From the NCBI GenBank assembly GCA_002385465.1, contig DGDN01000043.1, forward strand, positions 2,927 through 66,926: a stretch of DNA of 64,000 nt. Reading direction: 5' to 3'. The DNA comes from Candidatus Fermentithermobacillaceae bacterium UBA3951. GTDB taxonomy: Bacteria; Bacillota; Sulfobacillia; Fermentithermobacillales; Fermentithermobacillaceae. The notes below the pieces were generated by a model. That model worked only from the letters and a program-made list of their open reading frames with translations. It had not been told where the DNA came from and made no database searches. Positions within the stretch are counted from its first letter, which is position 1, and each line of letters begins with the position of its first letter. The position numbers and the translations under genes are program-made. Below, piece after piece: positions 11,257 to 54,054 of the stretch.

Positions 11257-11280
11257 ATAATCCGCCTCCTTTCACTCTTC

Positions 11281-12663: not shown

Positions 12664-12675
12664 GACCTTCTTTTC

Positions 12676-13125: not shown

Positions 13126-13163
13126 ACCCGTCCCCGTCCTTTATCGACAATCATCCCAATTTG

Positions 13164-17740: not shown

Positions 17741-17752
17741 CGGTCTCCCCCG

Positions 17753-18058: not shown

Positions 18059-18117
18059 CGATTCTCCTCCCCCCGAGAGACCGGCGCCGGATGAGCGCCG
18101 GATTCACACACTTGGCT

Positions 18118-18950: not shown

Positions 18951-19228
18951 GCTCTTTCCCCCCCGTAGATGAAACGAGCCTCCCGGCACCCAAGCCGAGA
19001 GGCAGCGAAAATTATAACCGCCCTCTTCGGTAACCCGGCTGTCATGGCGACTCTTTCTTTCTTGTCGCTTTAGACCCGCAGCTTTGCGTCACTGCCTTTC
19101 GACAGTTTTGCCTTTATCGGTGCGCGGTAACTGGACCTATTTAGCTGTGGTCGCCTCATATTCTACACAAAATCCAAAAATCCTTCTTCCCGTTACTAAT
19201 TTCGGAGATTTTTTTAGATACGTAAGAA

Positions 19229-26333: not shown

Positions 26334-28115
26334 GTGCGCGTACCTAATGTTTGGAAGGCAGTTAAGGACCTCCTTTCTCCCGCGAAAGGGACTCCTGAGC
26401 GCGCGCGCTTTTCCCTTGGAGAGCGTCCCATACCCGGCAAGATGCCTGCTAAAGCCAAAGAAGAAGGCAAGAAGCGTGGAAAGGAGCTTAGCCATGACCT
26501 TGACGAGAACATCCGCGCCCTCAAAAAGATCTTCCACGTGCCAGAGTCGTCCGACATCGTGTTCAGAGAGATCCTCATCGCCGAACCAAAGGCAAAAGCC
26601 GTCGTGGCCTATATCGAGGGGCTAAGCGACTTCGACAAGATCTTCAAGTGCGTGCTCCAGCCGCTTATGCTCTTGAGCCCTCTACGGAAAGGCGACCTCA
26701 AGAAGCCGGTTGACAGGTTAGAGTCGGTCCTTCTCCCCAACGGACAGGTTGAACGTACGGAAAGCCTCCACAAACTCGTTGAAAGCATTCTCATGGGCGA
26801 CACGGTGGTACTGGTTGAAAGAAGTAGCGTTGCCCTCGTCGTCGAGACCAAAGGATGGGAGCACAGGCAGGTCGGTGAAGCCGTATCCGAACGTATCGTA
26901 AGGGGGCCCCAGCAGGGGTTCGTGGAAGTACTGAGAAGCAACACGGCCCTCCTCCGCTCCATCGTACAGACCCCCGACTTGGTTGTGGAGAGCCTGGATA
27001 TCGGTGTGACGGCAAACAACAAATGCGCGCTTATTTACGTGTCCTCGATCGCAAGTAAGAAGCTGGTGGACGAGTGCAGGAGAAGGTTACTGGGGCTGGA
27101 CGTCTCGGAGGTTTTCACTTCAGGCGAGCTGGAGCAGCTCATCGAAGACTCCCACAGCCTCTTGCCCACCATCCTAAGCACCGAAAGGCCCGATCGCGTG
27201 GCTGTCCACCTCATGCAGGGGATGTGCGCCATAATGGTCGCCGGGGACCCCTTTGTTCTCATAGTTCCCGTCAACCTATTCGCATTTCTGGACAGCGCCG
27301 AAGACCGCTTTGTTCGCTGGCCGTACGGGAACATACTCCGGATTATACGTTACGTCAGTTTCTTCCTCACCATATACCTACCGGGGCTCTACGTGGCCAT
27401 AGTGAGCTATCACCCCGAGATGGTCCCTTCGGCCATGATGATGGCAATTGCGGCATCTCGGGAACCTATCCCGTTTCCGCTTTACATCGAAGTGCTGGTC
27501 ATGTTTTTCGGGTTTGAGCTCATAAGAGAGGCGGGAATACGGATACCTTCCCCCATCGGACCTACTATCGGCATCGTGGGTGCCTTGCTTATCGGTGAAG
27601 CCGCCGTGACCGCCTTCATTGTGAGCCCGATCTTGGTGATAATCATAGCAGTTACAGCGGTCGCTTCCTTCACTCTTCCGAACCTAGAAATAGGCATGTT
27701 CATCAGGGTGGCGACGTTTCTTTTCATCGTTGCGGGAGCAGCGCTGGGATTTCTGGGGATAGCCGTCCTCACTTACCTCATGCTGTGCCACGCCTTCTCA
27801 CTCAACAGCTTCGGAGTGCCCTTCCTCACGCCCCTGGCACCCATGAGGAAGCCTTCTTACCGGGGGGCATTTGTGACGGAACCCTGGAAAGTCGAGAAGA
27901 GGCCACCCTACATCCATCCCCAAAACACGTGGCGCCTCGGTCGCATAGCGCGCCTTTGGGATGCGGGGCTAACCCTCGAAGAGGACGGCACAAGAGGAGA
28001 GAGAGGTGACGGAGGTGGCGGAGGACAAGGTGGCTCACCAAGAGAAGCCGTCGAGGGCGGGAAAGGACCAAGGGACGAGAATGGGAGCAGGAGTAGCGAA
28101 AAGAGCGGGCGGTGA
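26334..28115 (+). CDS. gerKA: Spore germination receptor A subunit (GerA/GerKA family)
   Basis: GerAA-family core with 4-5 TM helices after a soluble N-domain. The GTG start follows AGGGTGAT. The C-terminus is a long Gly/Arg/Glu low-complexity tail. Confidence 0.85.
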   Translation: MRVPNVWKAVKDLLSPAKGTPERARFSLGERPIPGKMPAKAKEEGKKRGKELSHDLDENIRALKKIFHVPESSDIVFREILIAEPKAKAVVAYIEGLSDFDKIFKCVLQPLMLLSPLRKGDLKKPVDRLESVLLPNGQVERTESLHKLVESILMGDTVVLVERSSVALVVETKGWEHRQVGEAVSERIVRGPQQGFVEVLRSNTALLRSIVQTPDLVVESLDIGVTANNKCALIYVSSIASKKLVDECRRRLLGLDVSEVFTSGELEQLIEDSHSLLPTILSTERPDRVAVHLMQGMCAIMVAGDPFVLIVPVNLFAFLDSAEDRFVRWPYGNILRIIRYVSFFLTIYLPGLYVAIVSYHPEMVPSAMMMAIAASREPIPFPLYIEVLVMFFGFELIREAGIRIPSPIGPTIGIVGALLIGEAAVTAFIVSPILVIIIAVTAVASFTLPNLEIGMFIRVATFLFIVAGAALGFLGIAVLTYLMLCHAFSLNSFGVPFLTPLAPMRKPSYRGAFVTEPWKVEKRPPYIHPQNTWRLGRIARLWDAGLTLEEDGTRGERGDGGGGGQGGSPREAVEGGKGPRDENGSRSSEKSGR

Positions 28116-29454
28116 CCGGAAACGGAAAGGGAGCGGCGGAACGTACAAACTCAAAGAAGCCTCTCTCGCCCTCGGGCATATTTCAACAAATCAAGTGGCG
28201 GGGCTCCTTGGCTTCTTGCTCGGAGTGAAGTCCTTCCTCATCACCCCCACCTTTCTTACGCTGGAACTCTCAACGGGGGCGTGGCTCTCCGTACTCATCT
28301 CCGTCGCCCTCGCAGTCGTAGCGGCAATTGGCTGGCTTAAGTGGTCCTATCTCACACGTGGGCTCCCGTTCCTCCAGGCGCTTCAAGAGACGTTGGGAAA
28401 AGCCCTCGGGACTCTGCTTTGCGCCTCGATTACCGCATCTTTCGTGTTCGCGATTTCCCTGAGCATGCGGCTCTTCGCAGGTGGAGCTGCGATCGGCCTC
28501 CTGCCCGACGTCCCTATCGAAGTCCTCCTCATAGCCCTCATAGCATCCAGCGCTTACTCCGCATGGGCAGGGCTTGAAAGTTTGGCCCGGGCGACCACTT
28601 TCTTCTTTGCTCCTACCGTCATCTCTTTTGTGATCATTGTGGTGACCTCCCTCCGTGATCTGGACCTTAGAAATCTCTTGCCGTTTTGGGGACCCGGGCC
28701 GGCCGAAGTAGGTTTGGCCGGACTTAGGCTGATCGGCCTCTGGGGAATACTGCCTGCTTTCGGGGCCGTAAAGACCTATGTCCGCCGCGAGGAAGACCTA
28801 GAGAAGGGTGTCTTGACAGGGCTCTTGGCTGCCGGCGCCACACTTACGGCGACCGTTGTGGCAACACTCCTGTTCTTTCCGTATCCCTCCGGGACACGCC
28901 TCACCCACCCTCTGGGAATTCTCGCAAGGTCCATATATCTCGGCAGGTACTTTCAGCGTCTTGAGGCGGTATTTGTGTTTACCTGGTTTTTTCCTTCCGC
29001 GATTCAGGCCGGCTTTACCTACTTCGTTATACTTGTGTTTCTTGCCCAGATGTCGGGCGTGAATACATATCGCATGTTCTTGCCGGCTCTTTCCGCCCTG
29101 ACGTTTGCTATAGGCGCGATGCCCGTAAGCCTCCACAAGACGGCGCAAGTTCTTACCACCTACTTCTTCGACACCGCAGGCATAGCCCTCATATCCCTCG
29201 GGTGGGTGCTGTACGGAGTGGCAAGACTAAGGGGGATAAAGCCTCCTCAGGCCAAAAATCCGGAAAAAGACCCGGCTCAAGATACGGAACAAGATACTGA
29301 CCCGGATACAGAGGGCGTGGGGATGCAGGCGTCAGAGTCGCCGGGACGTGGGCCTAAGGCTCAGGATAAAGAGGCGGGCCTAGGTAGCGCTCAAAAAGGC
29401 CGAGGGGGTGACTATCGTGCGCCTTCCGGAAACACGAATGCGACCTCGAACTAG
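28081..29454 (+). CDS. gerKB: Spore germination receptor B subunit (GerAB/spore permease family)
   Basis: About 10 TM segments in an APC-like spore permease pattern. The start is uncertain. The track ORF starts at 28006, and I use the ATG at 28081, which overlaps the gerKA 3' end. Confidence 0.75.
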   Translation: MGAGVAKRAGGDRKRKGSGGTYKLKEASLALGHISTNQVAGLLGFLLGVKSFLITPTFLTLELSTGAWLSVLISVALAVVAAIGWLKWSYLTRGLPFLQALQETLGKALGTLLCASITASFVFAISLSMRLFAGGAAIGLLPDVPIEVLLIALIASSAYSAWAGLESLARATTFFFAPTVISFVIIVVTSLRDLDLRNLLPFWGPGPAEVGLAGLRLIGLWGILPAFGAVKTYVRREEDLEKGVLTGLLAAGATLTATVVATLLFFPYPSGTRLTHPLGILARSIYLGRYFQRLEAVFVFTWFFPSAIQAGFTYFVILVFLAQMSGVNTYRMFLPALSALTFAIGAMPVSLHKTAQVLTTYFFDTAGIALISLGWVLYGVARLRGIKPPQAKNPEKDPAQDTEQDTDPDTEGVGMQASESPGRGPKAQDKEAGLGSAQKGRGGDYRAPSGNTNATSN

Positions 29455-30667
29455 CGTATACTTCGCGATCTTCGGCGCGCTTCTCCTACTTCTTCCCGGC
29501 TGCTGGGGAAGAAGGGAGGTTGAGGAAAGGTCCTTCATACACGTCATGGGCGTGGATAAGGGTAAGAGCGGGAGGGTCCATGTAACTGCCGCGATCGCCG
29601 TTCCAAGGTCGCTCCAGCGGGGGCCGGAAAGTGGTTCAGAGGGTGGCAAGACATCCGTCATCCTAGACGGTGAGGGCTATGACATCGTGGACGCACTAAA
29701 CAAACTTGAGGCGGTGAGCTCGAGGGAATTCACGGGGCAGCACATAAGCTGCCTGGTGTTGGGAGAGGGCTTGGCCAAGGACGATATATCGCCCGTCATC
29801 GACGTCTTCCACAGAGGACTGGAGTTCCGGCCCACTACGCTGGTAGCGGTCTCTAGGGGTGACGCCAGGGATTTCATCCGGGGCCTCAGGGCACCTGAGG
29901 AAATTGATATTGCCGACTATCTCACCAAAGTGATTGATACCGGGTATACCTCGCTGGGCTACTGTCCGGTGGTGACCATGCATGACTTCTCCGAGCGCTA
30001 TCAAACCGTCGAGGCTTCCCCTTGGGCACCCCTTCTGGACCTCGCCTCGCCAACAGGGGACAACGAAGAAATGAGTGAGCCACAAGAAGGCTCGGGTGAT
30101 TCTGAGCTCATGCCCGCCGCCATTGTAGGGACGGCCTTATTTGCCCCTACCGACGGAAGGTACCGCATGGTCGGGCACCTCACGGCGGAGGAGACCAGGG
30201 CAGCCCTGGTCTTGTGGGGCCGCTCGCGGTCGTGGTTTCTTGACATAAAGAGCCCGGGCGACGAGGGGCTTCTCAGCGTTGCGGTGAAGCACGCCTCCGT
30301 AAGGACAAAAGTAAACCGTCAAGGTGACAAGGTAGATGTCCAGTTCATCATCCGTCTGAGCGGGTCCATCGAGGAGTATCTGGTAGACCCAAAGGCACCT
30401 CCAACTACGGATAGAAGCCGTGTTGCCATGGCCGAGACGGCGGCCCAAAGGGTACAAGAGCTTTGTCAGACGTCCTTCTACAAGATGATGAAACTCGGAT
30501 GTGATGCCATCGCCCTTGGGCGGTCTGTCCACGGAACGTTCAGGACCATGCCGGAGTGGGAAGCTTTCAACTGGCCCGCCAGACTGTCAGAAGTTAGTGC
30601 TACCTTCACCGTAAAATTCGACATCTACTCAACCGGATTTGCCTTCCACCGCCCTGTTCCCAGGTAG
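29438..30667 (+). CDS. gerKC: Spore germination receptor C subunit lipoprotein (GerAC family)
   Basis: Signal peptide plus lipobox (MRPRTSVYFAIFGALLLLLPGCWG) and a GerAC-type fold, overlapping the gerKB end. Confidence 0.8.
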   Translation: MRPRTSVYFAIFGALLLLLPGCWGRREVEERSFIHVMGVDKGKSGRVHVTAAIAVPRSLQRGPESGSEGGKTSVILDGEGYDIVDALNKLEAVSSREFTGQHISCLVLGEGLAKDDISPVIDVFHRGLEFRPTTLVAVSRGDARDFIRGLRAPEEIDIADYLTKVIDTGYTSLGYCPVVTMHDFSERYQTVEASPWAPLLDLASPTGDNEEMSEPQEGSGDSELMPAAIVGTALFAPTDGRYRMVGHLTAEETRAALVLWGRSRSWFLDIKSPGDEGLLSVAVKHASVRTKVNRQGDKVDVQFIIRLSGSIEEYLVDPKAPPTTDRSRVAMAETAAQRVQELCQTSFYKMMKLGCDAIALGRSVHGTFRTMPEWEAFNWPARLSEVSATFTVKFDIYSTGFAFHRPVPR

Positions 30668-39691: not shown

Positions 39692-40393
39692 TTACTGGAC
39701 GAACATCTGACAGGACTTGGCCAGCTTCGATAACGCCCTTTTCTCGATGCGACTTACGTATGACCGTGAAATGCCCAGCAGCCTCGCAATTTCCCGCTGG
39801 GTCTTCTGAGGTTTGCCCGAAAGCCCGTATCTCAGCTCAAGGACTTCCCTCTCCTTCTCGTCGAGGATTTGAAGCTTTGAGAGAACGTTCTCCGCCTGGA
39901 CCTTGGCCGTGACGACTTCGGCGACGTCACCGTCTTCGTCTCTCACGAGATCGATGTAGGTGACTTCTCCCTCATCATCTTCGGAGGACAAAGGGTCGAA
40001 AAGGTGGAGCTCCGTCTTATCGTTCTTTGTTGCCCTGAGGTACATGAGGATCTCGTTCTCAATGCACTTGGACGCGTATGTTGCCAGCCTGGTGCCCTTA
40101 TCCGCCCGGTAGGTGTTTATGGCCTTGACGAGCCCTATGCTCCCGATCGATATCATATCCTCAATGTCTTGAGGGTTCGGATCGAACTTCTTCACTATGT
40201 GTGCAACGAGACGCAGGTTGTGTTCCACAAGGGTATTCCTGCTGTTAATATCGCCCCTTTTCACTCCGTTAAGGCAGTTTTGTTCCTCTTCTTCAGATAG
40301 AGGATGCGGGAAGTTGTTTCCACCTATGAAACCCAGAGAGGCCTCAAGGACCTTGATAATAAGCTGAGCAATGCCGTGAAGGGCGTTTACCAC
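39692..40393 (-). CDS. sigK: Sporulation sigma factor sigma-K (uninterrupted, with pro-sequence)
   Basis: Pro-region MVNALHGIAQLIIKVLEASLGFIGGNNFPHPLSEEEE matches the B. subtilis pro-sigma-K region around KNNAFPQPLSSSEE. Regions 2 and 4 (IEHNLRLVAHIVKKF, KTQREIARLLGISRSYVSRIEKRAL) are close to SigK. The GTG start follows GGAGGGTAGG. Confidence 0.8.
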   Translation of the reverse strand: MVNALHGIAQLIIKVLEASLGFIGGNNFPHPLSEEEEQNCLNGVKRGDINSRNTLVEHNLRLVAHIVKKFDPNPQDIEDMISIGSIGLVKAINTYRADKGTRLATYASKCIENEILMYLRATKNDKTELHLFDPLSSEDDEGEVTYIDLVRDEDGDVAEVVTAKVQAENVLSKLQILDEKEREVLELRYGLSGKPQKTQREIARLLGISRSYVSRIEKRALSKLAKSCQMFVQ

Positions 40394-40438: not shown

Positions 40439-42061
40439 TCAGGGTAAAGGCCTCGTGTGCGTGTCCGGCCTGAGAAGCCTTTCTGCTATGTCGTGAAAGA
40501 TGGGAGCAGCCACAGTGGGACCGTCTCCGCCTTCTTCGACGAAGACGACGATAACGTACTTGGGCGCGATAAGTGGCGTCCACCCGGCGAACCAGGCATG
40601 AGGTTTCCCGTCTCTGTGCCCTGTTTCTGCGGTGCCGGTCTTACCTGCCGAGCCGAATCCGTCTATGTAGGCGGCCTGACCCGTTCCGCTTCGGGTGGCA
40701 AGGAGAAGCGCCGATTGGAGTGTCCCGGCCGTTTCTTCGCCGAAAAGCCTCTTTAGGGTCTTATCGGAGCCGGGGATGAGTTCGGGGCTTTTCCACATGC
40801 CGCCATCCACGATCGAACGGTAAAATGCCGCTACCTGGAGGGGCGTGACCAACAGGTAACCCTGGCCGATCGCCAGGTTGGCCAAGTCGCCGAGGTACAT
40901 ACTATGGGCATTGGGCAGCACTCCGGGCGATTCTTCCGGCAGCTCCAAACCTGTCTTTTCCCCAAACCCAGAGAGCCGGGCGAACTCCACGAGCTCCCGG
41001 GCAGGGATCCTTTGTACGCACTGGATCAGGGCTGAATTGCAGGAGTATGCCAGGGCTTCTTTGACCGTGACCGTCCCGTGGCCGCTTTCGCGGGAACCGC
41101 ATGCTACTACCCTGTCGCCGACCTCGATGCTGCCTTCGCAAAGAAATGAGTCGGTCTCTCTCACGTACCCCTTATCCAGCAAAAGAGCCATGACAACCGT
41201 TTTCCACACCGACCCCGGGGGGAAAGCAGAGATCGCGCGGTTCACAAACGGGGAGTCGTGGTCGTCCATACACCTCTCGGGGTGATTTTGATCGTAGTTT
41301 GGCCTGGACGCCATGGCCAGGACCTCACCTGTCGCCGCATCCAGTACGAGCGCAGCTCCCTTCCTTACGCCCCTTTCGTCCAGGACGTCTTCTACGGCCA
41401 GCTGAACGGAGACATCGAGAGTAGTCCGTAGATCCGACGGTTTATCCTGGGGCGGCACAACCCGGATGCCGAGCCCGGGGATCCCGGTGCCTTCACCTGT
41501 TAGAACGACTCCGGCTGACGAGGGATACCTCCCCGATAGGGAATCCTGGAACCACTTCTCGAGCCCGCCTTCACCGACGTTGTCTCTGGGGTTTACGTAG
41601 GCATTGGTCCTAACGTGCCCAACTACGTGGCGGGCGAGCGACGAGGGCCCGTACCGTATTTCTTCCGGGACTACGGCCCAACCCTCCCCCCTCTCTCTCC
41701 CCAATACCTCGTCCACCTGTTCGGGTGACGCTTCCCTCACAACCTTTTCGGCCACCGGATCCTTCGAGCCGGCGCCTGCCGAGAGGCGGGCGATGGCGTT
41801 TCCCCATACGGGATAGTGGAGGGGGATCCCGTGCCTGTCCACGATGTTTCCCCGGGACAGCCCCACCGGGATCCCCATGTACCTTTGGTAGAAGGCGGGT
41901 TCCACGAACCTATCCGACTGGAGCGGTCCTATGAGCTGATACCGTACAAGGAGACCGAGGAGGCAGAAGAATATAAGCGAGACGGACGCTTTAACAAGCT
42001 CTATCCGTCTCTCGGACTCCTGGTTACCCGGCCTCGACCTAGACGCCTGCAAGCGATTCAC
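40439..42061 (-). CDS. spoVD: Class B penicillin-binding protein (SpoVD/FtsI-like transpeptidase)
   Basis: N-terminal TM and PBP dimer domain, with transpeptidase motifs SVWK, SCN and KTGTA. A sporulation role is inferred only from its position next to sigK. Confidence 0.7.
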   Translation of the reverse strand: MNRLQASRSRPGNQESERRIELVKASVSLIFFCLLGLLVRYQLIGPLQSDRFVEPAFYQRYMGIPVGLSRGNIVDRHGIPLHYPVWGNAIARLSAGAGSKDPVAEKVVREASPEQVDEVLGRERGEGWAVVPEEIRYGPSSLARHVVGHVRTNAYVNPRDNVGEGGLEKWFQDSLSGRYPSSAGVVLTGEGTGIPGLGIRVVPPQDKPSDLRTTLDVSVQLAVEDVLDERGVRKGAALVLDAATGEVLAMASRPNYDQNHPERCMDDHDSPFVNRAISAFPPGSVWKTVVMALLLDKGYVRETDSFLCEGSIEVGDRVVACGSRESGHGTVTVKEALAYSCNSALIQCVQRIPARELVEFARLSGFGEKTGLELPEESPGVLPNAHSMYLGDLANLAIGQGYLLVTPLQVAAFYRSIVDGGMWKSPELIPGSDKTLKRLFGEETAGTLQSALLLATRSGTGQAAYIDGFGSAGKTGTAETGHRDGKPHAWFAGWTPLIAPKYVIVVFVEEGGDGPTVAAPIFHDIAERLLRPDTHTRPLP

Positions 42062-42620
42062 GGGTATCTCTAAGCGCCTTAAGGTCTTCTTCCATGGCCG
42101 AAGAAAACTCCTTGAGCGACGACACCCTGTCGACCTGGCTTTGTTCCAGCCACCTTGCCAGATTTGCCGAATGCTCTTCGATTACTCTGGCGGCTTCTCT
42201 AATGCGCTTCCTGAGTCCCGCGATTTCCTCTCTAAGGCGCGTGCCCTCCTTTGATAGGACAGCCATCCTTGAGAGCCCCTTTATGAACGGGACTATGTCC
42301 TGCCCAGACTCCTCAGTGGAACGGACCAAATCTTGGAGGTAATCCAGGAAACCTTCTTCCCGTGATTGGGGTCCTTCCATTGCGGCAGGTTCTGTCTCTC
42401 CAGCTCTCGACTCACGCCCCTCAGTCCCCTGGTTCCTTACCTGATAGTACTTCCATCGAGCAGTGAGCCACGAAATGCGGTTCTTCTCGGCATATTCTTT
42501 GAGCGCCTGGGTGATGGACGCTCCTTGCAGTACGCGTCCCTCTACAAACTCTCTGAGGTCCGCTTCTTTACCTTCTTTCCATCGATATCTGGGTGACCTG
42601 GCGGTTGTTCCCAAAGACAT
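42039..42620 (-). CDS. RsfA-family (Myb-like) sporulation transcription regulator, putative
   Basis: RYRWKEGKEADLREFVEGRVLQGASITQALKEYAEKNRISWLTARWKYYQV aligns by eye with the RsfA Myb-like region (AWT..LLLAETVLRHIREGGTQL.AFEEVG..L.RT.AACRFRWNSLVRKQY). The C-terminal half is coiled-coil. Confidence 0.5.
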   Translation of the reverse strand: MSLGTTARSPRYRWKEGKEADLREFVEGRVLQGASITQALKEYAEKNRISWLTARWKYYQVRNQGTEGRESRAGETEPAAMEGPQSREEGFLDYLQDLVRSTEESGQDIVPFIKGLSRMAVLSKEGTRLREEIAGLRKRIREAARVIEEHSANLARWLEQSQVDRVSSLKEFSSAMEEDLKALRDTRESLAGV

Positions 42621-43989: not shown

Positions 43990-45465
43990 CTAGGCCGGCC
44001 GTTCAACTCGACCTCGCCGGGACAGCGCCTCCATGTACACCTCGGTATACATGGCAGCCGACTTGTTCCACGAGAAGTCGGTCTCCATAGCCTGCTTAAC
44101 TATATGGTTCCAGGTTGACCGGTCTCTGTATTTGTCGAGCGCGCGGTCAAGTGCAGCTACCAGGTCTTCGGCTTCGTAGCGGTCGAACAGAAACCCGGTT
44201 CCCGTGCCCGTTGAAACGTCATACTCACTTACGGTATCTGCAATGCCGCCGGTCCTACGGGCAACCGGGATCGAACCGTACCTCATGGCTATGAGCTGGC
44301 CCAGGCCACAAGGCTCGAACCTGGACGGCATGAGGAACATGTCAGAACCGGCATAGATCCGCTGGGCCAGGATTCCGTTGAAGCCTGTGGTGACAGACAC
44401 TTTTCCCGGATGGGACCGGGCCAGAGACCGGAAGGCCTCCTCGTAGCGCTCGTCGCCGGACCCGAGAAGCACGAACTGGAGCGGCCGCGAGAGGATCTCC
44501 GGCATGGCCTCAAGCAGTACGTCCAAACCCTTTTGGTCGACCAACCTGGAGACCATCCCTACGAGGGGCTCATGAGACAACGAAAGCCCCAACTCCCTTT
44601 GAAGGGCCAGTTTGTTGTCGACTTTTGCACCTAGGTTCCTGCTGTCATACGTCTTGAACAACCGCGGATCGGACGACGGGTCATATTCGTGGTAGTTTAT
44701 GCCGTTCACGATCCCGTATAGGTCACTGCCACGCTTCCTCAAGACGCCGTCAAGACCTTCGCCGAATTCCGGCGTCTGGATTTCTCGCGCATAAGTCTCC
44801 GATACGGTGTTTATGACATCTGCAAAGAGAAGACCCGCCTTCATGAAACTCACGTCGCCGTAAAACTCCACTCCTCCGGGAGTAAAATACTCTTCCCCCA
44901 AACCCAGAAGACCCAGGGTGACCTTTGGAAACCGGCCTTGGTACCGGAGGTTATGTATGGTGAAAACCGATGCGGTCTCGTTCCATAGGGCGCTGTGCCT
45001 TCCCCGGATGCGGATGAGCAGGGGGATGAACCCTGACTGCCAGTCGTTTAAGTGGACTACATCCGGACGGAAGCCCAATTCCTCGCAGAGGGGCAAGATC
45101 GAGAGGTTGAAAAAGGCAAACCTCTCTGCGTCGTCTTCGTATCCATAGAGCCGGTCCCGGTCGAAATAGTGGTAGTTGTCGACGAAATAGACGGGCACCT
45201 CTTTGGTGCCGCGGGAAGACTTGGCCTCTATCCGGGAACGCCTTACAATGCACGTCTCTTTCCTTTGCCCGACTTCTACCGGGAAGTCGGTAACCGTCGC
45301 GTAATCTCCAATGCGGCGATACCTTGGGAGCACAACCCTCACATCGTTGCCCTGAACCGCCAGAGCTTTGGGAAGGGAGCCGGCCACGTCTGCCAGTCCT
45401 CCCGTCTTGGCGAAAGGGGCTACTTCGCTGGCAACCACGAGTATCTTGAGTCCTGTGTCGAGCAT
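43990..45465 (-). CDS. glgA: Glycogen (starch) synthase GlgA
   Basis: KILVVASEVAPFAKTGGLADV GT5 motif. The start at MLDTGLKIL is preceded by GGGAGG and overlaps the upstream stop in a TAATG arrangement. Confidence 0.9.
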   Translation of the reverse strand: MLDTGLKILVVASEVAPFAKTGGLADVAGSLPKALAVQGNDVRVVLPRYRRIGDYATVTDFPVEVGQRKETCIVRRSRIEAKSSRGTKEVPVYFVDNYHYFDRDRLYGYEDDAERFAFFNLSILPLCEELGFRPDVVHLNDWQSGFIPLLIRIRGRHSALWNETASVFTIHNLRYQGRFPKVTLGLLGLGEEYFTPGGVEFYGDVSFMKAGLLFADVINTVSETYAREIQTPEFGEGLDGVLRKRGSDLYGIVNGINYHEYDPSSDPRLFKTYDSRNLGAKVDNKLALQRELGLSLSHEPLVGMVSRLVDQKGLDVLLEAMPEILSRPLQFVLLGSGDERYEEAFRSLARSHPGKVSVTTGFNGILAQRIYAGSDMFLMPSRFEPCGLGQLIAMRYGSIPVARRTGGIADTVSEYDVSTGTGTGFLFDRYEAEDLVAALDRALDKYRDRSTWNHIVKQAMETDFSWNKSAAMYTEVYMEALSRRGRVERPA

Positions 45466-46535
45466 TATGTGGCCTCCCAACTCCCCATCGCCCCGGCGAA
45501 CTCCCTGGTTGCGAGTTCAGGCGATGTGGGGTTTATGTACGTGCCGCTTCCCAACTCGAGCCCGGCCTCGGTGTTGAGCCTGGGGTAGACGTGGATATGG
45601 GCGTGATAGGGCCACCCTCGCTTGGTCTTCACGGACGAAGGCAGACCGTGGAAGACCATGTTGTAAGGCAATGCCGAGAACATGGACTCGTATGCTCCAA
45701 ATAGCTGTCGAATGGTAGCGGCGAGGTCATCCATCAGCGCATCGTTCATCTCTGTGAACCCGGAAACGTGCTCCGCGGGCACAATGAGGGTCTCGTAAGC
45801 CCGCCTTGAAGCGAAAGGCGAAAGGACGAGAAACCGGTCGTTCCTGAGTATCACCCGCACGTCCTTCTCGGCTTCACGCTCCAGAAGGTCGCACATGAGG
45901 CATCTACGGGTCTTGGATTCGTAGTCCTTCAGGCGTTGCCCTTCCAGCAAGATAGCCGGGGGCATGACGGGCAACGCGATGATCTGAAAGTGGGGATGGG
46001 TGAGCGACGCTCCCGCTGTCTTTCCACTGTTCTTAAAGACCTGGACGTAGGAGATGTCACTCGAGTCGTACATGGCCGCGCATCTCTCCTTGATGGCTTC
46101 CAGCACCTTCTTCATGTGGCCAGTGGAGTACGAGCCCAGAGAGCCGTTGTGTGCGGGGGATTCCACGACGACCTCGTGGAAACCCACTCCCGGAGCTTGC
46201 CAGTACAAAGCCCCCTCGGGAGAGTCGGGGAACGGAGGAACCCTCCACGCATCATCTTCTGCCATCCCGTGAGGCCTGGAGATAAGAGCCGGGAACTTAT
46301 TCGGTACCACCCGCACCGTCCAGCCTGGGCTATCGGCGTTTCCTTCCGTGCGATTCGCCCACACCTCGGGCGGGGTCTCCCGCTCGTTCCCAGGACAAAA
46401 CGGACACTTAGGATCCCTTTCGGGCAATTCGCCGGCTCCGTCCTGCGCGGACCTGTAATCGGAAGGCCTTTTCGACCTTTCTTGAGCGATGATTGCGAAG
46501 CCTGCGCTCAACACATCAAACCGGATCTCAGGCAA
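45465..46535 (-). CDS. galT: GalT-family (HIT superfamily) hexose-1-phosphate nucleotidyltransferase
   Basis: Zn site CPFCPGNE and active-site HPHFQI (HxHxQ), with VFKNSG and HAHIHVYP aligning with the E. coli GalT VFENKG / HPHGQI / HAHFYP segments. Confidence 0.8.
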   Translation of the reverse strand: MPEIRFDVLSAGFAIIAQERSKRPSDYRSAQDGAGELPERDPKCPFCPGNERETPPEVWANRTEGNADSPGWTVRVVPNKFPALISRPHGMAEDDAWRVPPFPDSPEGALYWQAPGVGFHEVVVESPAHNGSLGSYSTGHMKKVLEAIKERCAAMYDSSDISYVQVFKNSGKTAGASLTHPHFQIIALPVMPPAILLEGQRLKDYESKTRRCLMCDLLEREAEKDVRVILRNDRFLVLSPFASRRAYETLIVPAEHVSGFTEMNDALMDDLAATIRQLFGAYESMFSALPYNMVFHGLPSSVKTKRGWPYHAHIHVYPRLNTEAGLELGSGTYINPTSPELATREFAGAMGSWEAT

Positions 46536-46613
46536 ACGTATCGTCCTCTCAAGTTGGGCTCAGTGCTTTGACCCTTCGTTGGGCTCCCGGTAGTGCTACG
46601 CATCGTGCTTTAG

Positions 46614-46648
46614 GGGAACAAAAGGGGTAGTCAAGATACTACCCCTTC
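46614..46648 (-). terminator. Intrinsic terminator downstream of the CotF-repeat gene
   Basis: Minus strand AAGGGGTAGT-atcttg-ACTACCCCTT 10-bp stem followed by TTGTT. It lies between the coat gene stop (46674) and the galT start (46535). Confidence 0.6.
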
Positions 46649-46673
46649 TTGTGTTCCTTCGTCGTACGCGTCT

Positions 46674-47813
46674 CTACTGGCTCTGCCAGTTGCCCTGGCT
46701 TCCCAGCTGCCAGCCTTGACGCTGGACCCCAAGATCTCTCTGCCAGCTGCCGGTGCCGAAATGGGTGGGTGAACCCTGCATTCCTCCAAGGCCCTGCTGC
46801 GTCCCACCGTGCTGGAACCCTAGAGATGGCTGACCGGGTACAAAACCTACCTGTTGTCCCGGTCCGCCCTGGCCAAAGCCTGTGCCTCCCCTTGCCCAAT
46901 TGGGTAGGTTCGCGCTGTGGCCGGATTGATACTGGCCGCCGAAACCCATCCAGCTCGGCTCACCGCCCCACTGAGCGCTCTGCCCCAGACTCGACGGTCC
47001 GAAGCCACTCTGGCCTTCCCCGTACTGCGTTCCTGTCCAGCCCTGCCTGCTTACTGCCCCTTCTTGAACGCCGAAGCCGCTCTGGCTGCCGAAACCTCTC
47101 TGGGCCCACTGGGGGATGTTCTGGTACTGCTGCGTTCCGTGGATCTGGCCTGCTCCCGTCGAAATCCAGCTGGGCTGGCCACCCCAGCGCGCTCCCTGTG
47201 CCAGGCTTGAGGGTCCAAAACCGCTCTGCCCTTCGCCGTACTGGGTACCGGTCCAGCCCGTGCTTCCCTGCCAACCGGTAGACGCGCTTTGTGCTCCGTA
47301 CCCGCCTCTGGCCCAATCGGGAATGCCGCCTTGATGCTGGGTACCCTGGAACTGCCCGGTGCTTCCCGACATCCAGCTCGACTCACCGCCCCAACGCGCA
47401 CCCTGGCTCACGCTGGAGGGTCCCATACCGCTTTGGCCTTCCATGATCTGAGTGCCGGTCCAACCCACTTGTCCTTGATTCATGCTCACGTTAGTTCCTC
47501 CCATGTTCACAGTGGAATTCATGACTTGCCTCGACTGGTGAACGGCGTTTCTGAGATGAGAGAGCGTCTCCTGATCCGCTTTCCGAACCTGATACCAGCC
47601 TTTGGAGTGCAAGTAGTCAAAGACGCTTTTTGCCGCACTGGTTGCGCCGGCGTGGAGCTCCTGAAAGGCCGAACGCAGCGCGGGATCGCCCGATTCCAGG
47701 ATCGCGGGCGCATAGTAGTAGTTGGACAAGTACTTCTGTCCAGCCAGAAGGTCTTCGGCGATTTCCCGGTCGGTCATGGGTTTGCCGCCGGAAGATCCTG
47801 CCACTTCAGACAC
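46674..47813 (-). CDS. CotF-domain spore coat protein with C-terminal Trp/Gly/Gln-rich tandem repeats
   Basis: The N-terminus (EDLLAGQKYLSNYYYAPAILESGDPALRSAFQELHAGATSAAKSVFDYLHSKGWY) is a Coat_F-type domain. Residues about 117-330 form three repeats of about 70 aa (GWTGTQYGEGQSGFGPSSLAQGARWGGQPSW...IPQWAQRGFG). Confidence 0.7.
   Translation of the reverse strand: MSEVAGSSGGKPMTDREIAEDLLAGQKYLSNYYYAPAILESGDPALRSAFQELHAGATSAAKSVFDYLHSKGWYQVRKADQETLSHLRNAVHQSRQVMNSTVNMGGTNVSMNQGQVGWTGTQIMEGQSGMGPSSVSQGARWGGESSWMSGSTGQFQGTQHQGGIPDWARGGYGAQSASTGWQGSTGWTGTQYGEGQSGFGPSSLAQGARWGGQPSWISTGAGQIHGTQQYQNIPQWAQRGFGSQSGFGVQEGAVSRQGWTGTQYGEGQSGFGPSSLGQSAQWGGEPSWMGFGGQYQSGHSANLPNWARGGTGFGQGGPGQQVGFVPGQPSLGFQHGGTQQGLGGMQGSPTHFGTGSWQRDLGVQRQGWQLGSQGNWQSQ
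46824..47465. repeat. Three in-frame tandem coding repeats (~210 bp each) inside the CotF-domain gene
   Basis: The protein repeats start at residues 117, 186 and 258. The DNA shows recurring ccagctgggct / caccgcccca / ggtccaa blocks. Confidence 0.7.
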
Positions 47814-47835
47814 TTTCTTGACCGCCCCCTGCTTT

Positions 47836-48039
47836 TCACTTCACGTGACTTGATAAGAGGCTCAAGTGTCGCTCACACGCTCGTTCCAGGTTTTCGATAA
47901 GTGCCCGTAGTTCGGGGTCTTGGGCCATCTGCCTGTAAGAGGTGAGTTTTTGCGACATGAGGGTCTCACCCTTTATGGACTCTCCAAGGTACCAGGCCTC
48001 GGTCTGGGTGAGCTGCAATACGCGCCACCTCCCTTCCAT
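47836..48039 (-). CDS. Small CotF-like spore coat protein (start uncertain)
   Basis: LMSQKLTSYRQMAQDPELRALIENLERACERHL resembles the Coat_F core. The track ATG at 48039 lacks a Shine-Dalgarno. The internal ATG (MSQKL, 40 aa) is preceded by AAGGTGA. There are 22 nt between this gene and the larger CotF gene. Confidence 0.5.
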   Translation of the reverse strand: MEGRWRVLQLTQTEAWYLGESIKGETLMSQKLTSYRQMAQDPELRALIENLERACERHLSLLSSHVK

Positions 48040-48082
48040 TCAGGCTTAGAATGTCACTGGCCCCCTGCGTGTATTCCCGCGG

Positions 48083-49486
48083 CTATACGGACATTGCCCC
48101 TGATTCATCCTCAATCAGCTGCAGGACGACCTGCTCTTTGCCCGTCATGGCGTTTATGTAGACAAGATAGGTGTCGTTACCGCTTCTCACCCTGAACTCC
48201 CATGCCATTACCTCCGTTGTAGGGAGGATCGGTATGACGCAGAGTCTGGGTTCGGCGCTTTCAACCTTGAGCTCGGGCCTGAGCACGCTGCGGGCCGCGG
48301 CCGGTGAAACGATGGGCGCCCTGAGCACGCGTCCGGGGTGACCGTGGGTCATCAAGTAGTTCATCTGGTCGAATGAGACAATGGCACCGGTATCGAGCGA
48401 TACCTCGACCTTCACCGTGTCGGGGTAGAGGCGAACTTTTGTACTCCCTCCGGGCCCGGACACCTCTGTATGAGGCACGTAGGCGAATACTACACGGCTC
48501 GCGTCCGCGCCGCGCTTTCGCCACCCCGTTTCCTCGAGGCTTAGAAAACCCTTGGACTTCAGGAATTCCATTGCCTTATTCCGGGCCTCATCCAACCCGA
48601 TGGCGCCCGCGCCTCTCGGGGCGGAGTCTGTGGCCATGACCACTGCCCCTCCCTGTTTGGCAACGGTCGTAGCCACCTCGCTCCCATCCTGTCTCTTTGC
48701 GGTGACCACGTACGAAGGAATAGACCCTTCAACCGTCCCTACTGAGACGGACTCGAAACTCTCGCCGGGAGTGAGAAATGACAGGGCTATCTCTTTGGCC
48801 CTCTCCTGAGAGATCAAGGGACCGGGCTGCGCAAGGGCCTGGGCTTCCAGGTTCTTCTCCGAGAAAGGCCCGTCGTAAACGGGTGTAGGGATGCTCTGGG
48901 TGATCTGATCGATCTCGGAGAAGCCGTGGTTCAGCGAATCCGCCGCCCGTTGAGAGCTTCCTGTGAAAGAAGCCGCCATCTCCTGAAGCCCCGCCCTTTG
49001 GGGCCTAGGCGCAGTGATGCTGGCCTGCGCCGTCCTCGCAAGGACACCGGAAAGCTGCTTTACTCCTTCCTCAAGCCGGGCGAGTTCAGCCCACTCATCC
49101 GGAGTCACGGTTTCGCCTCTCGCCAGCTTCTGGGAAAGCACCAGAGCGAAGTCTCCTACTGTTGCTACAAAACGGCGAGGGCCGGAGAGGTCCACTCCGT
49201 CTGCTCCTGCCAGGCTGAGATCGCTCCGGGCCGCCTGACAGTTCAGCCAGCCCGAGGTCAAGAAATTGATCTGCTGCCCGGGCGACGATGAAGCCCTGGC
49301 TTTAGCCAGGCTCGCCTCGAGGTTCTCAACGTGGGTAACCAAGTTAAAAAGGGCTCTTTGCTGAGCCGCTTGCATCCTGATCCTAGCCGACCGGGCGTCT
49401 CTGTATTGCGCAAGACCAAACGCCAGAGAAAGTACGGTCACGGCGCCAAGAGCCCAGAGGAGCCATCTCTCTCTTCGTGTCCTCAT
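48083..49486 (-). CDS. ypeB: Germination protein YpeB (PepSY-domain membrane protein, SleB partner)
   Basis: N-terminal TM, and the C-terminus matches B. subtilis YpeB (VFAYVPHTEVS...VRLYPDTVKVEVSLDTGAIVSF...TYLVYINAMTGKEQVV). Confidence 0.85.
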   Translation of the reverse strand: MRTRRERWLLWALGAVTVLSLAFGLAQYRDARSARIRMQAAQQRALFNLVTHVENLEASLAKARASSSPGQQINFLTSGWLNCQAARSDLSLAGADGVDLSGPRRFVATVGDFALVLSQKLARGETVTPDEWAELARLEEGVKQLSGVLARTAQASITAPRPQRAGLQEMAASFTGSSQRAADSLNHGFSEIDQITQSIPTPVYDGPFSEKNLEAQALAQPGPLISQERAKEIALSFLTPGESFESVSVGTVEGSIPSYVVTAKRQDGSEVATTVAKQGGAVVMATDSAPRGAGAIGLDEARNKAMEFLKSKGFLSLEETGWRKRGADASRVVFAYVPHTEVSGPGGSTKVRLYPDTVKVEVSLDTGAIVSFDQMNYLMTHGHPGRVLRAPIVSPAAARSVLRPELKVESAEPRLCVIPILPTTEVMAWEFRVRSGNDTYLVYINAMTGKEQVVLQLIEDESGAMSV

Positions 49487-49522
49487 CCTTCCTTTACACC
49501 TCTCTTAATGCAAGGGCCTTCA

Positions 49523-49981
49523 TCAGTACGCGAACACATGGTTGCCGATCTGAGTGACGATGGGCCTAGACCATATCCAGGGGCTCACCGGCTTGTAGGG
49601 GTTCCAGAAGAAAGTACATCCGTAGGTTGGGTCGTATCCATTGAGCGCCAGTTCGGCCGCGCGGTACATCTCATCGGTAGGCGTGGTGCTCCATATGAGG
49701 CCGTTGGTGACCGATTCGAAGGCATCCGGGTCATAGATGACCCCTGCTATCGTAGGTGGGAAAGCAGGATCTCTGGTCCGGTTCACTATAACCGCACCGA
49801 CGGCGACCATGCCCAAGAAAGGCTCCCCAGTGGCTTCGCCCATGATCACCCGGGCAAGGAGCTCGAATTCGTCGTACCAGCTCTGGGGCGCGGCAGCACA
49901 CCGCGGCATGTCGGCGGAAAGCGAAGTTGATAAGAAGATCAGCGCTGCTGCGCAAAGGCAAAAAAAAGTCTTGATCCTCAA
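49523..49981 (-). CDS. sleB: Spore cortex-lytic enzyme SleB/CwlJ-family hydrolase (catalytic domain only, secreted)
   Basis: Signal peptide plus a Hydrolase_2 domain (IMGEATGEPFLGMVAVGAVIVNR...FWNPYKPVSPWIWSRP). The TTG start follows GGAAGGG. There is no N-terminal PG-binding domain. Confidence 0.9.
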   Translation of the reverse strand: MRIKTFFCLCAAALIFLSTSLSADMPRCAAAPQSWYDEFELLARVIMGEATGEPFLGMVAVGAVIVNRTRDPAFPPTIAGVIYDPDAFESVTNGLIWSTTPTDEMYRAAELALNGYDPTYGCTFFWNPYKPVSPWIWSRPIVTQIGNHVFAY

Positions 49982-50089
49982 ATGGCATCCCTTCCTCTAC
50001 TTGTAGGTCCTACCGCGTCCTTTGGCGCTTGCGAAAGGGCGCAAGGAAGGCCCGTGCTCTTAGAATGCGTGAGGAAGGGATGCAGTTAT

Positions 50090-51142
50090 TCAGCGACCTT
50101 GGTAAGTCGCGCGGTTTTGGTTGTGCTCCGCCAAAGTGCGGGCAAAAGCGTGGGTACCGTCGTTCTTGGCTACGAAGTACAGATAATCCACGTCATCGGG
50201 AGCAAGGACGGCTTCCAGGCTCGCCTTGCCGAAATTGCAGATGGGGCCCGGCGGGAGGCCGGGATTCCTGTATGTGTTGTACGGAGAGTCTACTTCTAGG
50301 TCCTTCCAGAGCACCAATGCGTCGGGGGGTTTTCCCAGTGCATAGAGCACGGTAGGATCGGCATCCAGCTTCATCCCGATCCTAAGCCTGTTTAAGTAGA
50401 CTGCAGCGACGATAGGCCTCTCAGAAGCAACCTGAGCTTCGCGCTCCACAATCGAGGCCAAAGTGGCCGCCTGATGCGGGGTGAGATTGACCGCCGCGGC
50501 CTTCTCCTGCAACTCTTCGGTGAAAACCTGCTCCATCCGCTTGAGCATCATGAGCACCAGTTCTCGTTCGGACATTCCTCTCCGGATGTAATAGGTGTCG
50601 GGGAAGAGATAACCCTCAAGCGGCGCTCTTGCGGTTTCAAGATATTCGGGCGGGAGGTAAGCCGGGGCAAGGGATCTGTCCGAGGCGGCCTCCAGGAAAG
50701 CTTCCTTTGACCCGAAACCCCTCTCCTCTACAAGAGCCGCTATTTGGTCCACGCTGAGCCCTTCCCGCACCGTAAGCGAATAATAGATGACACGCCCTTG
50801 GACCAGGCTGTCAACCACATCAAGAGCGTGAATGCCGGGCTCAAATCTGTACTCCCCCGATTGGATGCGGCCGTCGGCTCTCATCACTCTGGTAAGCACC
50901 CTGAAAAACAGCTCGTCCCGTATCACGCCGTGGTCCTTAAGGAGGGCCGCGACATCACGGGTGGACATCCCCGGTTCCACAATCACGCTAACCGGCCCGG
51001 CTGTTTCCGGCAGAGGACAAGAGCTGAGGTAGGACGCTATTGACAAGGCCACTATGCCGAAAGCAAGGACAAGCCACAAACCGTACTTGCGTAGGCGGCT
51101 GCGGCGGGGCAGCGTGCCAACTTGCGTGCCGGGTGCTCTCAA
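50090..51142 (-). CDS. mltG: Endolytic murein transglycosylase MltG (YceG-like)
   Basis: N-terminal TM and a YceG domain. Confidence 0.85.
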   Translation of the reverse strand: MRAPGTQVGTLPRRSRLRKYGLWLVLAFGIVALSIASYLSSCPLPETAGPVSVIVEPGMSTRDVAALLKDHGVIRDELFFRVLTRVMRADGRIQSGEYRFEPGIHALDVVDSLVQGRVIYYSLTVREGLSVDQIAALVEERGFGSKEAFLEAASDRSLAPAYLPPEYLETARAPLEGYLFPDTYYIRRGMSERELVLMMLKRMEQVFTEELQEKAAAVNLTPHQAATLASIVEREAQVASERPIVAAVYLNRLRIGMKLDADPTVLYALGKPPDALVLWKDLEVDSPYNTYRNPGLPPGPICNFGKASLEAVLAPDDVDYLYFVAKNDGTHAFARTLAEHNQNRATYQGR

Positions 51143-52956: not shown

Positions 52957-54054
52957 TTACTCTATGGGCTCCATCCGTCCGGCGAGTTTCTTAAGGACTT
53001 CAGGCATCGTGGTGTACTCCAGCTCTTCAAGCCCTAAGCGGTGAGGCTCAAAGGGGCCCATGGAGCGGAAGTAGTCCGCCATCTCGTTGGCGATCTGCCG
53101 GGCCCGGTCAAACGCGACGTCCGCAAAGAAGTCCTGGGGGCCTATGAGCTTGCCCTGGCTGAGCTGGAAGCCGAACGCCATAACTCTCGGAGGTCCGTCA
53201 AATCTGGTCGGAATGGCCTGCTCTGCTCCGCACGGCATGAGCGGCCCGTGGTGGGAACCCCTCATCCAGCCTGCGACAATATGAGGCTTGGAGAAGGGCT
53301 CAAGCGCTTCTCCAACGGCAGGCATACCGCTCTGGCAGCGGACGATCAAGACCGGATCGTCCTTACCTACGTACCGGCCGGCCATGAGGTTGAGCCTCTG
53401 TGTCGACGACGTGGCCGCGATCTCGCCGAGTGTCCTGGAGTAGACGGACTTCACGCAGTAGCGGCCTGGGGCACCGATGAACACTAAGAGGTCGTAGAGC
53501 TCTTCAGGGCAGTGGAAAACGACCTTCTTGTGTTCTATGAGGTCGTGGACCTCAAAATCGAAGCCTTTGTGCATCTTGGGGTCGATAACCAACCCGGCGG
53601 TGTTGAACGGGTCTGCGAACATCTTGTAGAGCGGGTAGTTCCAGGCTCCGGGCTCGGTCTTGTCAGCCATGAAGACTATGACCGGCTCCGAGGGTCTCTC
53701 TTCGAACTCCATCTCGGCGACCCCGGGTCCCAGGCCCTTTATGTTCCCTGAGAACGAGTCGCTGAGAAGGTCTTGCCCCGCCCCGTACAGCTTGAGTCTC
53801 TTGGCTTCCGCGGTAGCGGCAAGGAAGGCATCCCAAGCCAGCTTGTGGATGTCTTCGTTGTCCACGCCGAGAGAGTGAGTCATGATGAGCTCGATGTCGT
53901 CTCCCACGTGGTCAACGTGGAAGTCTATGAGGAGCCCTTTCCCACGCGTCTCGAGGTGGTCCTTCGCGGCCGCAAGCAGGTTCTGGTGCACCGATGAATG
54001 TCCAACGAACCCCCCTACGTCGGCCTTGATCACGGATAGCGTTACTTTAGACAA
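52957..54054 (-). CDS. fbp: Bifunctional fructose-1,6-bisphosphate aldolase/phosphatase (archaeal-type class V FBPase)
   Basis: Near-colinear identity by eye with the archaeal FBP A/P hallmark segments (VIKADVGG, LIMTHSLG, YGAGQDLLSDSFSGNIKGLGPGVAEME, ADKTEPGAWNYPLYKMFADPFNTAGLVIDP, WMRGSHHGPLMP, RFDGPPR). Confidence 0.9.
   Translation of the reverse strand: MSKVTLSVIKADVGGFVGHSSVHQNLLAAAKDHLETRGKGLLIDFHVDHVGDDIELIMTHSLGVDNEDIHKLAWDAFLAATAEAKRLKLYGAGQDLLSDSFSGNIKGLGPGVAEMEFEERPSEPVIVFMADKTEPGAWNYPLYKMFADPFNTAGLVIDPKMHKGFDFEVHDLIEHKKVVFHCPEELYDLLVFIGAPGRYCVKSVYSRTLGEIAATSSTQRLNLMAGRYVGKDDPVLIVRCQSGMPAVGEALEPFSKPHIVAGWMRGSHHGPLMPCGAEQAIPTRFDGPPRVMAFGFQLSQGKLIGPQDFFADVAFDRARQIANEMADYFRSMGPFEPHRLGLEELEYTTMPEVLKKLAGRMEPIE

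Follow-up and report, generated by a model that had tools for sequence, protein, structure and literature searches.

We analysed a 64,000-nucleotide stretch of contig DGDN01000043.1 (the window; Candidatus Fermentithermobacillaceae bacterium UBA3951), focusing on a CotF-family gene on its reverse strand whose product joins a Coat_F domain to a long tail of Trp/Gly/Gln-rich repeats. Open reading frame (ORF) calling on the window placed this gene at 46674..47813 (-), with a GTG start and a predicted product of 379 aa; the ribosome-binding site (RBS), AGGGGG, lies 11 nt before the start codon. A small gene is located 22 nt upstream, the cortex-lysis genes sleB and ypeB lie beyond it, and an intrinsic terminator follows the CotF-family gene. 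The features discussed below are, in the direction of transcription:

50061..50091, minus strand: sigma-G-type promoter-like element of sleB, GAATA-N19-CATTCTAAG (CATTCTA)
48083..49981, minus strand: cortex-lysis genes sleB (49523-49981) and ypeB (48083-49486), from Pfam and NCBIfam
48047..48076, minus strand: sigma-G-type promoter-like element of the small gene, -35 GAATA 48076-48072, N18, -10 CATTCTA 48053-48047
47836..48018, minus strand: small partner gene, 60 aa, TTG start at 48018, RBS GGGAGGTG at 48033-48026, predicted helical hairpin
46674..47813, minus strand: gene for the Coat_F-domain protein with repeat tail, from the ORF and Pfam, RBS AGGGGG at 47830-47825
47508..47774, minus strand: folded N-terminal helical domain (aa 14-102), from Pfam, AlphaFold2 and Foldseek
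47262..47468, minus strand: repeat unit 1 (aa 116-184), motif A 47370-47465, motif B GIPDWARGG 47301-47327
47046..47261, minus strand: repeat unit 2 (aa 185-256), motif A 47163-47258, motif B NIPQWAQRG 47094-47120
46824..47045, minus strand: repeat unit 3 (aa 257-330), motif A 46947-47042, motif B NLPNWARGG 46884-46910
46677..46823, minus strand: C-terminal Gly/Gln/Trp segment (aa 331-379, 49 aa), ending ...GNWQSQ, from the sequence
46613..46647, minus strand: intrinsic terminator, GC-rich 10-11-bp stem, 6-nt loop, then UUUUGUU

A preliminary description of the locus had already pointed to a strong downstream terminator, and the hairpin (46622-46647) with its U-tract indeed reaches -25.3 kcal/mol (z -4.1 versus shuffles). 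Direct reading of the 379-aa protein sequence revealed neither a signal peptide nor a hydrophobic segment, and NCBIfam holds no family for the protein, its tail or the small ORF.

The tail comprises 275 residues, among them 73 Gly, 45 Gln, 32 Ser and 16 Trp (27%, 16%, 12% and 5.8%, respectively), with zero Lys, zero Cys and five Tyr. As the preliminary description had proposed, it is built from three Trp/Gly/Gln repeats, here of 69, 72 and 74 aa, followed by a Gly/Gln/Trp end. The DNA period of 210-225 bp given there was roughly right: a DNA-level repeat search returned one family of three 132-nt copies, 61-72% identical, at spacings of 216 and 207 bp. A separate comparison of the copies gave 74-76% DNA identity. 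Tandem Repeats Finder, suggested as a check at the time, missed the repeats, whose copies have diverged too far for it, and reported only a 17-bp micro-repeat at 46677-46711. The units thus do not behave as a slippage-prone DNA tandem repeat, for which we had asked for at least about 70% identity together with detection by that program (61-76% observed, none detected). Biased composition does not account for the repeats, which are real: unit-versus-unit Smith-Waterman scores are 195-219, compared with 46 ± 9.5 (maximum 101) in 1000 composition-preserving shuffles (z 16-18). Between the three copies, the proportion of synonymous differences (pS) is 0.58-0.80, near saturation, and that of nonsynonymous differences (pN) is 0.08-0.17; the copies are therefore old and under purifying selection on the peptide. 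Their age and the near-saturated synonymous sites also explain why the repeats appear so faint in DNA.

Each unit consists of two conserved pieces, motif A and motif B, set between variable Gly/Gln/Ser spacers. Motif A, of about 30 aa, occurs in all three units as WTGTQYGEGQSGMGPSSLAQGARWGGQPSW, and 158 instances from 57 homologues gave the logo W-T-G-T-Q-[YA]-G-E-G-Q-S-G-M-G-P-S-S-L-A-Q-G-A-R-W-G-G-Q-P-S-W. Among its positions 1-18, 14 are at least 87% conserved (12 of them above 90%), the others being positions 6, 11, 13 and 18 at 44-80%. Motif B can be written as [NG][IL]P-x-W-[AT]-[RQ]-G or LPxW(A/T)R. Across 17 orthologues, identity to the motif A copies of the window is 80% for the full 30 aa and 88% when only the first 18 are counted, compared with 62% for the N-terminal domain. 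The term low complexity, used previously for this region, does not describe it well, because the units hold a 30-aa motif that is under purifying selection and better conserved than the folded domain.

AlphaFold2 left aa 107-379 of the full-length protein without structure (predicted local distance difference test (pLDDT) 30-40), and a single repeat unit folded with a 36-sequence alignment also showed no secondary structure (pLDDT 51). As neither run gave structure, we read the tail as a probably intrinsically disordered region with embedded short linear motifs; a folded repeat domain (GW-like or beta-solenoid) was considered and rejected, as AlphaFold2 gave the tail no fold. The most strongly conserved positions of motif A are non-aromatic (GEGQSGMGPSS), which points to specific recognition by a partner, an enzyme or the motif itself rather than generic stickiness. 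Two chance resemblances were dropped, namely a sortase-like LPxTG signal in LPSWTRG and a GPR protease site in GEGQSGM. At the very end of the protein, ...GNWQSQ is kept among the closest orthologues; C-terminal ends are generally conserved within clades (...GNWQSQ, ...QGQWR) and could be a terminal docking peptide. One clade (P0012, P0014, P0018, P0021, P0022, P0027 and others) additionally carries GTGWQP[TS]YSQ[TP]P directly before motif A.

The family proved to be narrowly distributed. Searching 5.8 billion proteins identified 57 relatives, all from metagenomes or metagenome-assembled genomes (MAGs), several of which are labelled Candidatus Fermentithermobacillus or Fermentithermobacillaceae. 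A repeat-unit profile run against 1.84 billion cluster representatives matched 24 proteins at E<=1e-3, essentially all of them members of the same family or its fragments. Given so few matches, motif A looks like a lineage-specific invention, apparently restricted to one uncultured endospore-forming lineage (Ca. Fermentithermobacillaceae and related MAGs), which represents a candidate class of Bacillota. An alignment-based scan of genome contigs recovered 28 loci (a single-protein query gave none), 24 of which keep the order ruvX-yceG-sleB-ypeB-small gene-CotF gene-galT-like-glgA. We rejected the sleB-ypeB synteny as functional evidence, because the whole block from ruvX to glgA is conserved with unrelated functions inside it. 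Four outgroup loci (L025-L028) retain the pair of small gene and CotF gene next to other neighbours; their tails lack motif A and carry motif-B-like NLPSWAYxE or LPAWTRQEV in Gly/Tyr-rich spacers, which suggests that motif B arose earlier and is spread more widely than motif A. The repeats in these outgroup Coat_F proteins and in P0064-P0069 read NLPSWAYxEPPRRE or LPAWTRQEV. A homologue search with the outgroup protein L028 returned only seven proteins, all metagenomic.

Motif A is present in one to six copies per homologue, in line with the copy-number variation anticipated in the preliminary description. Three near-identical protein pairs (99.7%, 100% and 96% identity; P0004/P0007, P0008/P0010 and P0018/P0024 types) differ by exactly one 76-82-aa unit, which supports recent gain or loss of units, with short-read collapse of near-identical units as the alternative for those pairs. 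The tail can also outlast the domain to which it is attached, as seen at three loci from two lineages in which Coat_F has been lost or has decayed:

L029:4740-5800: small gene gone, Coat_F reduced to an 'SYYYAP' remnant
L030:100-1040: small gene gone, Coat_F reduced to an 'SYYYAP' remnant
L031:2940-4251: small gene gone, Coat_F region degenerate and without Pfam match

Each of the three keeps four well-conserved copies of motif A as well as the promoter-like element, and an RBS is recognisable in L030 and L031. The tail is therefore the part under strongest selection and able to stand alone.

The N-terminal Coat_F-like domain proposed from the sequence was borne out by Pfam, whose Coat_F hidden Markov model (PF07875), the model of the cotF/yhcQ/yraD/yraF/yusN group, matches aa 14-76 (47586-47774) with an E-value of 2.9e-14 and 53.5 bits versus a cut-off of 25.7, covering model positions 1-62 of 63. 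AlphaFold2 predicted helices at residues 15-40, 44-70 and 81-102 (pLDDT 70-88), the first two with pLDDT >80. Using Foldseek against the PDB, we found that the predicted domain resembles the two-helix half-ferritin hairpins of encapsulated ferritins, such as EncB 7S5C (target-normalised template-modelling score 0.8-0.9, root mean square deviation 0.9 A over 57-59 residues, probability 1.0), and also the four-helix putative spore coat protein BH2358 (2RBD). Probabilities for the half-ferritin hairpins and 2RBD were 0.9-1.0, with E-values of 0.08-0.7. Sequence and profile searches of the PDB with the N-domain and the small ORF gave nothing significant, only weak ferritin or di-iron hints at E 0.03-0.3. 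Neither alignment shows conserved di-iron ligands (Glu, ExxH): the N-domain has a single near-invariant His (FQxxH) preceded by a variable Glu, and the small ORF has RH or QH in place of ExxH. A role of the putative helical bundle as a ferroxidase is unlikely for this reason.

For the small gene, the TTG at 48018, 7 nt after the RBS GGGAGGTG, is the most likely start, as orthologues and independent gene callers agree on this codon, giving 60-61 aa. It directly precedes the Coat_F gene in 28 loci, the four outgroups included. The preliminary description had called it a small CotF-like gene; what holds is a conserved 60-aa gene with a predicted helical hairpin, whereas the likeness to CotF found no support, as Pfam returned no Coat_F match and hhalign against the Coat_F domain was not significant (probability 4.6%). 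Pfam DUF3231 matched weakly (E 0.0024), as did di-iron or ferritin-like PDB chains (E 0.03-0.2), so the small protein is at best weakly ferritin-like, and a homologue search with it found nine unnamed proteins. Its suggested link to CotF comes by analogy from yraG and yraE of Bacillus subtilis (PMC6878958). Since the gene pairing is strict (28 loci), the fold is a hairpin and fused relatives exist, the small protein and the N-domain hairpin would probably combine into a CotF-like four-helix bundle.

Regarding expression, a promoter-like element lies upstream of the small gene. The sigma-G consensus of B. subtilis is GHATR-18-CATXHTA, and the element matches it perfectly. The pattern GHATR-N17-19-CATNHTA occurs exactly twice in the 64-kb window on both strands (128 kb; shuffle mean 0.5), and the other occurrence is the element upstream of sleB, which has identical -35 and -10 boxes. 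By contrast, the small-gene element does not fit the sigma-K consensus AC-17-CATANNNTA and fits sigma-E (ZHATAXX-14-CATACAHT) only at -35, with the wrong spacing. G[AC]ATA-N18-NAT..TA is found at the same position in 27 of the 28 syntenic loci, with N19 at the remaining one, and GAATA-N19-[CA]A[TC]TCTA precedes sleB across the syntenic loci; both elements are conserved across these approximately 28 loci despite diverged flanking intergenic sequence. No sigma-70-like promoter was recognised within 46400-50200, and no sigma-E- or sigma-K-like element was seen, the -10 being CATTCTA and not CATA...TA or CATACA.T.

The gene order may provide a second route into the same transcript. The interval from ypeB to the small gene contains no terminator-like site, the sole other one being inside ypeB; transcripts running on from sleB-ypeB would therefore also cover the pair in the compartment in which sleB is expressed. 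In B. subtilis, sleB-ypeB is a forespore, sigma-G-dependent operon. The SleB of this locus carries a signal peptide and its YpeB is anchored in the membrane through the N-terminus, features that proteins exported from the forespore should have. From these sequence features we infer sigma-G dependence and a forespore location for the pair. As mother-cell promoter controls, sigK and the upstream regions yielded no clear consensus and were not used.

The reading that we regard as best, at about an even chance, is that of a split-CotF pair of the forespore, in which the disordered, motif-bearing tail of the large subunit would be a multivalent component of a scaffold or matrix within the spore as it forms. 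In the forespore, the two-gene unit would be transcribed from two sources, its own sigma-G-type promoter and sleB-ypeB read-through, and it would be a counterpart of the forespore-specific yraG/yraF and yraE/yraD pairs of B. subtilis rather than a mother-cell coat gene. In the large protein, the half-ferritin-like hairpin would join the small protein in a four-helix bundle of the CotF type. The uncharged 275-residue tail would present a bipartite linear motif, motif A together with LPxW(A/T)R, three times. The tail would be the selected, autonomous part, a multivalent array of identical binding or self-association sites that creates a scaffold or matrix, with its valency tuned through repeat gain and loss. 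Both the heterodimer and the multivalent scaffold role are what we infer at this point. More tentatively, and in our view doubtful in this full form, the tail may constitute an undescribed disordered module of about 70 aa (a 30-aa Trp-flanked motif plus LPxW(A/T)R) that creates a multivalent forespore matrix or condensate in a deep-branching class of Bacillota; it would then represent a lineage-specific component of the core or inner membrane, analogous but unrelated to small acid-soluble proteins (SASPs) or protective matrix proteins, and would work without the Coat_F anchor.

Several observations weigh against the forespore scaffold. The promoter assignment is a consensus match, and no sigma-G-type motif was recognisable upstream of the gerA-type operon in the window (26334-30667), which in B. 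subtilis is sigma-G-dependent. Every fold-search E-value for the N-domain exceeds 1e-3, homology of the small ORF to Coat_F or YraG/YraE was not found in Pfam, NCBIfam or hhalign, and no binding partner for motif A was identified. In the lineages that have lost Coat_F, the tail does without the bundle, which blurs the link between the two halves. Other points, some of which also count against the scaffold, speak for a mother-cell coat or crust protein, with Coat_F as its anchor in the coat and an aromatic/Gly/Gln tail that undergoes cross-linking or phase separation at the surface. Aromatic and Gly/Gln-rich tails are typical of coat proteins, and the composition here resembles that of known Gly/Tyr/Gln-rich ones. 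The outgroup relatives have Gly/Tyr-rich tails, the domain itself is Coat_F, and the NCBI name of this protein is 'spore coat protein'. Moreover, Coat_F proteins can be products of the mother cell, as with sigma-K-controlled CotF in B. subtilis and a sigma-E-controlled cotF-like gene in Clostridioides difficile (PMC6878958). We nevertheless consider a coat protein unlikely, although possible. The locus has no sigma-E- or sigma-K-like promoter, the -10 being CATTCTA and the spacing misfitting sigma-E; its conserved element matches sigma-G and is the same as that of sleB, and no terminator follows ypeB. The absence of Lys and Cys and the presence of only five Tyr leave few sites for cross-linking by transglutaminase, disulfides or dityrosine, and bulk cross-linked material would not need a 30-aa motif that is 80-88% conserved. 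The surface location suggested in the preliminary description is not supported, since the only promoter-like element is of the sigma-G type shared with sleB, and the coat is out of reach for a cytoplasmic protein produced in the forespore.

A forespore origin would also suit a storage protein similar to gamma-type SASPs, with the tail as a Gln/Gly reserve that is degraded at germination and the motif as a protease recognition site. Gamma-type SASPs are sigma-G-expressed, Gln-rich and repeat-containing, and their conserved part is the cleavage site of the GPR protease. The forespore-type promoter, the Gln/Gly-rich, disordered and internally repeated tail and its freely varying copy number agree with such a function. 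However, direct reading of the sequence revealed no GPR-type site E-[IF]-[AG]-S-E, the conserved block of 30 aa is far longer than a protease site, 5.8% Trp would be costly for a reserve, and Pfam and NCBIfam show no similarity to SASP families, which together make this explanation improbable. Finally, the gene could be an artefact, that is, a spurious ORF in GC-rich DNA or the result of mis-assembled repeats. Long ORFs on the opposite strand overlap the 379-aa gene, and the MAG orthologues L005, L022 and L023 are frameshifted or truncated within the repeat region. On the other side, gene calling yielded the very same 379-aa protein on 17 contigs, it is deposited under the accession MGI6662928.1 ('MAG: spore coat protein [Bacillota bacterium]'), and its 90% cluster, drawn from NCBI, JGI, ENA and Logan assemblies, has 13 members, nine of which are 379 aa long. 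The presence of the protein across independent assemblies excludes an assembly artefact, and the copies, at their 74-76% DNA identity, are too different for assemblers to confuse. With 57 homologues, synteny in at least 24 loci, selection in this reading frame and both an RBS and a terminator, the artefact explanation is effectively refuted. Defects inside the repeats at L005, L022, L023 and L026 (frameshift, truncation or masked N runs) suggest that assembling or polishing the repeats is difficult in some genomes.

The closest parallel among known systems is the yraG-yraF-adhB-yraE-yraD operon of B. subtilis, which is sigma-G-controlled and forespore-specific (PMC6878958); YraF has been described as a forespore-specific protein (PMC7352945). 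As with YraF/YraD and YraG/YraE, a single Coat_F hairpin gene directly follows a small helical partner gene (PMC6878958), and the promoter is sigma-G-type, here as a consensus-level match. Unlike this protein, YraF and YraD comprise approximately 100-120 aa and lack the 275-aa repeat tail, and adhB is absent from the present locus. CotF and BH2358 (2RBD) share the Coat_F domain, with fold-level similarity of the N-domain to 2RBD, but are single fused chains of approximately 160 aa without a tail, whereas the bundle here would be split over two genes. CotF also differs in being a sigma-K-dependent, mother-cell-made protein of the inner coat, as opposed to the forespore-type promoter of the window gene.

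The best structural matches, encapsulated ferritins (EncFtn/EncB; 7S5C, 5DA5), have in common with the N-domain the two-helix half-ferritin hairpin, which must pair to form a four-helix bundle. Encapsulated ferritins also possess a disordered C-terminal extension with a short docking peptide. The similarity ends there, as E-values exceed 1e-3, Glu/ExxH are not conserved and the tail motifs are unrelated; no encapsulin shell gene was found nearby. SspE, the gamma-type SASP of Bacillales, combines forespore expression with Gln/Gly-rich disordered sequence and internal repeats around a conserved core. The window protein shares the internal repeats, the disorder (as predicted) and, judging from its promoter, probably the forespore expression, but shows neither sequence similarity nor a GPR site. 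It is also Trp-rich, has four times the size and carries a folded domain in the same chain. With the low-complexity coat proteins CotT, YeeK, GerQ and CotG, and with cohesive aromatic/Gly/Gln domains of the FG-nucleoporin or prion-like kind, the tail shares spaced aromatics in uncharged Gly/Ser/Gln sequence, predicted disorder and variable copy number. Those sequences are defined by composition, with short degenerate repeats, in contrast to the position-specific 30-aa motif seen here.

Parts of this picture are of known kinds: the family is already in databases as 'spore coat protein' or 'hypothetical', and neither the Coat_F domain nor its pairing with a small gene is new. By contrast, in the libraries and papers searched we found no description of the repeat module, its conservation above that of the domain, its survival after Coat_F loss or the forespore-type promoter shared with sleB. 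The module has no relative in Pfam, NCBIfam or the PDB, and it would give rise to a new motif that the first two lack. 'Spore coat protein' is the routine annotation of Coat_F proteins, but judging from this locus some may be made in the forespore, like those of yraF and yraD. The tail is a clean example of a predicted disordered region with motifs that are more conserved than the folded domain and outlive it. If both the forespore location and the scaffold or matrix role were true, the protein would be a lineage-specific addition to the little-known set of spore-interior proteins in an uncultured class of Bacillota. Its practical value is modest, lying in better annotation and a variable-copy marker for strain typing in anaerobic-digester metagenomes.

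Other features of the window deserve brief mention. Downstream of the CotF-family gene, a GalT/HIT-like nucleotidyltransferase gene (45465-46535 (-), also matching DUF4921/DUF4931) overlaps by 16 nt with the following glycogen synthase gene (43990-45480 (-)); in the 22 loci long enough to include them, both genes keep their synteny with the CotF locus. On the other side lies a fructose-1,6-bisphosphatase gene (52957-54054 (-)) of the FBPase_3 family (PF01950, E 6e-185), which is typical of thermophiles and deep-branching lineages. The sigK gene (39692-40393 (-)) appears intact, scoring 297.6 bits in the NCBIfam SigK subfamily (cut-off 252), with no interrupting element visible, and lies directly downstream of a gene for a transpeptidase similar to penicillin-binding protein (PBP) 2/SpoVD (40439-42061). 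A 193-aa ORF (42039-42620 (-)) overlaps the start of this PBP gene by 23 nt and has no Pfam or NCBIfam family; a 141-aa ORF (18564-18989 (-)) likewise has no Pfam family. The gerA-type germinant receptor operon (26334-30667 (+)) encodes GerA, Spore_permease and GerAC domains, and the annotated GTG of its first gene is probably too far upstream, an ATG near 26442 being more likely. Finally, a flagellar cluster occupies 1975-18558 (-), with flhB, fliR, fliP/O, fliN, fliM, fliL, motAB, flgE, flgD, fliK, fliJ, fliI, fliH, fliG and fliF, followed within the same interval and on the same strand by codY, hslU/hslV-like, xerC-like, topA and dprA genes.

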